The notes under the pieces: model-generated
Database searches by the model: none
What the model was told of the DNA's origin: nothing
What the model saw: the letters and a program-made list of their open reading frames with translations, nothing else
Translations under genes and position numbers: made by a program
DNA from: Escherichia coli
GTDB taxonomy: Bacteria > Pseudomonadota > Gammaproteobacteria > Enterobacterales > Enterobacteriaceae
Length of the DNA: 64,000 bases
NCBI RefSeq assembly: GCF_045037415.1
Contig: NZ_CP173438.1
Direction: 5' to 3' (one strand)
In this document: one piece after another, positions 26,929 through 27,062 of the stretch
Numbering within the stretch: position 1 is the first letter of the stretch
Layout of the letters: every line of letters begins with the position of its first letter

Positions 26929-26985
26929 TCTAAAATCCTCGGAGATGTGATCTGCCCGGCATTAAACCGCACAGATATAAAAGTG

Positions 26986-27011
26986 AAAAAGGGGGCCATA
27001 TGCAGGCCCCC
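26986..27011 (-). terminator. rpsB-tsf intercistronic attenuator/terminator hairpin
   Basis: gggggcc atatgca ggccccc hairpin at 26991-27011, followed on the minus strand by uuuuu. Confidence 0.65.
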
Positions 27012-27062
27012 TAACCAAACGTGTACTACCTGGTCTATAAGGGCTCGTACGAGCGTGCCTTA

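Follow-up and report, generated by a model that had tools for sequence, protein, structure and literature searches.

The repeated elements known as ERIC, IRU or RU-1 are reportedly treated in work by Sharples and Lloyd in 1990, by Hulton and colleagues in 1991 and by Wilson and Sharp in 2006. They are imperfect palindromes of about 127 bp, intergenic and co-transcribed, found near stop codons, and their presence varies between strains of Escherichia coli. The attenuator located between the rpsB and tsf cistrons is said to have been described by An and Friesen in 1980 and by Aseev and colleagues in 2008. Long-read studies of K-12 have found stepwise 3' ends for tff-rpsB-tsf (PMC8848933). Insertion of ERICs has been reported at TA dinucleotides (PMC2759123, PMC2229807). 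In Yersinia, according to PMC2229807 and PMC10969869, which relay De Gregorio et al. 2005, ERICs adjoining stop codons reduce the level of the upstream transcript through an RNase E site that is exposed when ribosomes block the folding of the element.

The small RNA CssrA was described in Shigella flexneri (Peng et al. 2011, PMC3071730), where a northern blot revealed an RNA of about 110 nt. Its 3' end was taken from a predicted terminator and its 5' end was calculated from the size of the band, not mapped. The first table of that paper (its Table 1) lists map/rpsB as the neighbours of CssrA, whereas the Rfam model of the family is located in the rpsB–tsf spacer.

The rpsB–tsf locus

We analysed a 64-kb stretch of DNA from E. 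coli (the window), in which pyrH, tsf and rpsB follow each other in this order on the minus strand, map being encoded on the plus strand (Table 1). A sequence-only reading of the window had given the rpsB–tsf spacer as 134 bp and had put that of K-12 at about 257 bp, that is, a spacer about 123 bp shorter than in the reference strain. The ORF coordinates agree with the first figure, and in K-12 MG1655 rpsB (189874–190599) and tsf (190857–191708) are indeed separated by 257 bp, not by 134 bp, so that the gap between both strains is exactly 123 bp. The same reading had described the attenuator hairpin as kept, and it was found in the window in a form identical to that of K-12. Its suggestion that the extra K-12 piece was about the size of a small repeat such as ERIC/IRU was also borne out when the K-12 spacer was aligned and annotated as it had proposed: the extra segment is an ERIC and the sequences at both sides are identical.

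Table 1 Features of the rpsB–tsf region in the window
Feature	Position	Strand	Basis or remark
pyrH	25205–25930	minus	
tsf (elongation factor Ts)	26077–26928	minus	ORF; exact product named elongation factor Ts [E. coli]
rpsB–tsf intercistronic spacer, ERIC-free allele	26929–27062 (134 bp)	minus	ORF coordinates, sequence, K-12 alignment
tsf Shine-Dalgarno GAGGA, same in both alleles	26936–26940	minus	sequence and K-12 alignment
Intrinsic terminator/attenuator (hairpin 27012–26990 plus U-tract)	26981–27012	minus	terminator scan
Hairpin 2 (HP2), GACCAGG…UUUGGUU	27013–27035	minus	MFE fold
Hairpin 1 (HP1)	27037–27063	minus	MFE fold
Empty ERIC site, sense C-ACGCTCGTACG	27046–27057	minus	alignments to K-12 and Salmonella
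rpsB (ribosomal protein S2)	27063–27788	minus	ORF; exact product named 30S ribosomal protein S2 [E. coli]
t44 RNA / rpsB leader (RF00127)	27816–27902	minus	83.5 bits; intact, upstream of rpsB

In the pairwise alignment, 134 bp of K-12 (positions 1107–1240 of the K-12 locus sequence, L001) face only about 11 nt in the window (sense ACGCTCGTACG, 27056–27046). At this position K-12 and Salmonella have TTGATAA plus an ERIC of about 127 bp, and the empty site of the window includes the TA of a hairpin loop (27049–27048). The terminator has the sequence AGGGGGCC-TGCATAT-GGCCCCCT, then TTTTTCACTTT, that is, a stem of 8 bp with 7 G-C pairs and a loop of 7 nt before the final tract. Hairpin and U-tract being identical, the sole difference from the attenuator of K-12 is the distance from the rpsB stop codon, about 50 nt in the window versus about 173 nt in K-12. 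Upstream of rpsB, the t44 leader is intact also at the Kluyvera, Citrobacter-like and Atlantibacter loci included in the comparisons below.

A second length polymorphism was found next door, in the pyrH–frr spacer (25056–25204 in the window, minus strand). This spacer measures 291 bp in K-12 and 042 and 149 bp in the window, IAI39 and SMS-3-5. The insert of K-12 and 042 is an imperfect palindrome of 145 bp (-57.8 kcal/mol), occupying the position of an ATC in the window and IAI39, and it was present in 3513 of 5426 genomes. The core of the insert resembles ERIC, with a marginal overall similarity (score 33 versus a shuffled maximum of 30).

The additional K-12 segment is an ERIC

The segment present in K-12 and missing in the window is a full-length member of the ERIC/IRU family. 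It aligned, in reverse complement, with the 127-nt consensus of the E. coli ERIC as printed in PMC2759123 over the full length of that consensus, with 104 of 133 positions identical and a score of 150, while shuffled controls had a mean of 17 and a maximum of 35. It could also be aligned with the ERIC copies located at yjbE–yjbF, hsdM–hsdR, ybhJ–ybhI and pgk–fbaA. Actually, this is a dispersed repeat, E. coli genomes having it at 10 places in the median, and among the matches listed there was no annotated feature beneath any of them. The K-12 segment shares with the family its size of about 127 bp, its imperfect palindrome, its intergenic and co-transcribed location near a stop codon and its variable presence between strains of E. 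coli. The long allele folds into a long hairpin of -95.5 kcal/mol (z = -7.2), and none of 200 shuffled sequences was equally stable.

The termini of this copy are atypical, CTCCCCC/GGGGGAG standing in for TATAC/GTATA, and the TA is not cleanly duplicated. A TA can be seen at the left terminus (TTGA-TA-AC), and one in the hairpin loop of the empty site. On the right the TA cannot be recognised, and the same holds for part of the inner stem. The window differs from the family pattern in having no ERIC at the spacer or elsewhere in its 64 kb: the short allele has no similarity to ERIC (score 10–14, lower than the mean of 17 that shuffling gave with the K-12 segment), and a search of the whole window with the ERIC core pattern, allowing 3 mismatches, gave 0 matches. 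In addition, the whole K-12 element (L001:1113–1236) matched the Vibrio antisense RNA family V_AS5 (RF02818) weakly and under its threshold (24.6 bits, E = 0.031), which hints that this RNA family is also related to ERIC.

Distribution of both alleles in E. coli

Junction-specific searches were carried out over 5426 complete E. coli genomes, 5424 of which had a match. All but one of the matching genomes (5423) could be assigned to either allele, 1328 to the short and 4095 to the long (ERIC) one. With the same short junction in 1328 complete genomes, the short spacer is not an assembly quirk. The short form was found in CFT073, ATCC 11775, IAI39 and SMS-3-5, and an ST131 strain was also without the rpsB–tsf copy, its best match falling at pgk–fbaA. 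The long form was found in K-12, BL21, O157, O55, O26, O111 and 042. We take CFT073, ATCC 11775 and ST131 to belong to phylogroup B2 and IAI39 and SMS-3-5 to F; among the strains with the long form, K-12 and BL21 are presumably A, O26 and O111 B1, O157 and O55 E, and 042 D. Within E. coli the sequences flanking the short and the long alleles are 99.7–99.9% identical. The short spacer of the window is common, an ordinary case of variation between strains in a well-known family of repeats, and of an already known kind.

Among the genomes listed, those without the rpsB–tsf ERIC had blastn matches to this copy at 1–4 places versus 6–14 in those with it, which suggests that the lineages differ in their content of the subfamily to which it belongs. 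Three records labelled as plasmids contain the rpsB–tsf region and are probably chromosomal fragments or mislabelled replicons.

The uninterrupted allele and its relatives

The MFE fold of the window mRNA 3' of the rpsB stop codon has three hairpins, HP1, HP2 and the terminator. HP1 has a basal stem (AUAAGG/CCUUAU) that begins at the last base of the stop codon and an inner stem (GCUC/GAGC) with the loop GUAC. In K-12 the ERIC is placed at the upper end of HP1, whose basal stem is kept and encloses it. The sequence of HP1 and HP2, between the rpsB stop and the terminator, is conserved from E. coli to Yersinia, Photorhabdus and Aeromonas. Across nine ERIC-free species, the helix of HP2 (helix 3) was paired in 93.7% and both helices of HP1 (helices 1 and 2) in 92.6% and 83.3%, and 88.9% of the cells pair in register versus 30–66% with the partners slid. 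Covariation in these nine species was not above that of shuffles for any of the three hairpins, so that the support for HP1 and HP2 comes from conservation and folding energy and not from compensatory change. Compensatory evolution of the hairpins across species, which had been considered, was dropped for this reason.

Spacers without ERIC, of 104–149 bp and with a homologous HP1, were found in Enterobacter sp. Ag1 (HP1 region TAAGGCACGCTCGCTAGAGCCCTTAT) and Enterobacter sp. Bisph1, Klebsiella sp., Yersinia, Photorhabdus and Aeromonas. A Kluyvera contig (metagenomic, named through exact protein matches) and a group of Citrobacter-like genomes, whose tsf is 94% identical to that of E. coli and to that of Salmonella alike, also have ERIC-free spacers with a homologous HP1. 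In K. pneumoniae, E. roggenkampii, Raoultella, Atlantibacter and Superficieibacter the spacers measure 116–122 bp and the hairpin is reduced. The short allele has 10–11 nt of its own. They are homologous with the inner hairpin found in ERIC-free spacers from Enterobacter sp. Ag1 and Bisph1, Klebsiella sp., Yersinia, Photorhabdus, Kluyvera and a Citrobacter-like genome. One metagenome contig (L111) that matched the short junction had an unrelated S2 N-terminus and was excluded as a chimeric assembly.

The Salmonella copy

The spacer of Salmonella enterica (three places) measures 257 bp and contains the same ERIC with the same odd junctions as K-12. The tsf gene of this locus is 91.2% identical to that of the window, which indicates a truly Salmonella-distant locus, and in each species the flanks are typical of that species. 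The ERICs of K-12 and Salmonella are identical at 123 of 135 positions (91%), while each of them is 78–80% identical to the E. coli consensus and 69–75% to a Salmonella reference copy. Matched 1-nt deletions in the two terminal arms distinguish one copy from the other. K-12 and Salmonella diverge by 9.0% in the ERIC, 4.8% in the remaining spacer and 27.7% at the four-fold sites of tsf, and K-12 and the window by 1.4% at four-fold sites. The contrast between 9.0% for the element and 1.4% within E. coli indicates that both ERIC copies parted long before E. coli diversified, and a divergence of this size also disfavours a recent transfer from S. enterica. Furthermore, since S. enterica has an orthologous ERIC with the same junctions, both alleles should predate the diversification of E. 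coli.

History of both alleles

That the lineage of the window simply lost the ERIC, the short allele deriving from a K-12-type allele by deletion, could be suggested by the junctions shared between the Salmonella and K-12 copies, which would fit an element older than E. coli. A deletion, however, cannot recreate the ACGCTCGTAC(G) of the short allele: these 10–11 nt are absent from the long allele, are not derivable from the ERIC sequence and have homologues in the inner hairpin of seven genera without the element. The short allele is for this reason not a deletion product of the long one and, there being no ERIC remnant in it either, simple deletion was rejected, with a probability that we consider practically negligible. 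The window very probably carries the uninterrupted, ERIC-free allele, and it is the K-12-type strains that carry an ERIC of about 127 bp in the top of HP1. How the latter came to be there is a different matter, and "ancestral" is a term that fits the structure of the short allele, not necessarily the history of the E. coli lineage. Salmonella and E. coli might have gained their ERICs independently at the same hairpin, as the reported insertion of these elements at TA dinucleotides and the TA contained in the hairpin loop would allow. But both copies have the same non-canonical left junction (TTGATAA replacing ACGCTCG) and many derived substitutions in common, and they are closer to each other than to the consensus or to a Salmonella reference copy. 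On the basis of the common odd junction and of the derived substitutions independent insertion was rejected as very unlikely, and the similarity of both sequences indicates a single insertion event, not two.

With one insertion, the ERIC could have arrived in E. coli by recombination, or the ERIC-free allele could have returned to it. E. coli groups B2 and F branch early in the species and, if our assumption about the strains is correct, it is in B2 and F that the ERIC-free ones fall. Together with the fact that the Citrobacter-like, Kluyvera and all other outgroup spacers among those listed are ERIC-free, this favours an ERIC-free ancestor of E. coli and a later gain, in the ancestor of the groups to which we assign the ERIC-bearing lineages (presumably A, B1, D and E), of the ERIC allele from an ERIC-bearing relative. 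Against such a gain, the sequence flanking the ERIC in K-12 is of E. coli type up to its very edge, without SNPs of Salmonella type, and the 9.0% divergence of the element stands against only 1.4% within E. coli; given these values the donor would have to be an unsampled lineage and not a recent S. enterica. We regard this history as a real possibility that falls somewhat short of being probable. An insertion before or near the Escherichia–Salmonella split would account directly for the orthologous Salmonella copy with its identical odd junctions. It would also fit the divergence of the ERIC, which lies between that of the remaining spacer and that of the tsf four-fold sites as might be expected of an old and constrained element, and the matched 1-nt deletions, which preserve pairing in the terminal arms. 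E. coli would then have been ancestrally ERIC-bearing and the lineage of the window would later have recovered a short allele through recombination with a relative devoid of ERIC, or else both alleles would have persisted as a very long-lived polymorphism. However, the Citrobacter-like genomes are ERIC-free and yet no more distant at the tsf four-fold sites (18.0% from E. coli and 22.7% from Salmonella, versus 27.7% between E. coli and Salmonella). This history would also require one more import, or else a polymorphism of implausible duration, and no foreign SNPs are seen in the sequences flanking the short allele. To this older insertion we attribute a chance that is appreciable, if below even.

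CssrA and the rpsB 3' UTR

The covariance model of CssrA (RF02798, gathering score 93 bits) gave 136.2 bits in K-12, 130.4 in Salmonella and 53.6 in the window. Being below the gathering score, the window does not encode CssrA as defined; compared with the S. flexneri RNA, it has only the part formed by HP2 and the terminator. The model gave no match in four ERIC-free species. In K-12 (L001:1186–1295) and Salmonella the matching region consists of the 3' half of the ERIC, HP2 and the terminator and, judging from these alignments, the CssrA family amounts in effect to one half of an ERIC together with the attenuator. A scan for σ70 promoters found nothing in either allele and so lends no support to a promoter within the ERIC from which CssrA or tsf would start. 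Most simply, CssrA would be a stable 3' fragment of the terminated rpsB mRNA, cut near the apex of the ERIC.

Possible effect on rpsB and tsf expression

The third hairpin, the terminator, would pass only part of the transcription on into tsf. In K-12-type strains the ERIC, which is inserted as the reverse complement of the consensus, would turn HP1 into a stem-loop of about 150 nt. As the terminator and the start of tsf translation are identical in both alleles, the main effect of lacking the ERIC should be post-transcriptional. The rpsB 3' UTR of the window would be shorter and would lack an ERIC-dependent endonuclease entry site, and no CssrA-type RNA of about 110 nt (3' half of the ERIC plus terminator) would be produced.

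The K-12 element resembles the Yersinia ERICs, as presented in the sources given above, in being co-transcribed beside a stop codon. Its left arm lies 10–17 nt from the rpsB stop, and at this distance a terminating ribosome could prevent the ERIC from folding, as in the Yersinia model. This model of mRNA stability comes from Yersinia and is carried over to the E. coli rpsB–tsf locus by analogy. By that analogy, it is plausible that the presence or absence of the ERIC alters the ratio of rpsB to tsf expression, as the sequence-only reading had suggested. S2 autoregulates its synthesis at the rpsB leader, and a change in the level of S2 would probably be damped there.

Implications

For the window itself the difference matters little, its allele being common and intact. 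Only two points are mildly unusual: Salmonella has an orthologous copy of the ERIC, and the CssrA family is of ERIC origin. A wider picture, in which both alleles are much older than E. coli and the element has either passed between species in very short recombination tracts or been maintained as a long-lived polymorphism, and in which CssrA is an ERIC-derived fragment of the 3' UTR, is offered here tentatively and is rather doubtful as a whole. If it were true, one in four E. coli, among them major lineages of extraintestinal pathogens, would be unable to make CssrA. The composition of CssrA, half of a mobile repeat followed by an attenuator, affects the annotation of the family across strains. 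In addition, both alleles provide a natural pair with and without ERIC in an essential and highly expressed operon, which may be used to test the effect of an ERIC on mRNA decay or on gene ratios in E. coli.
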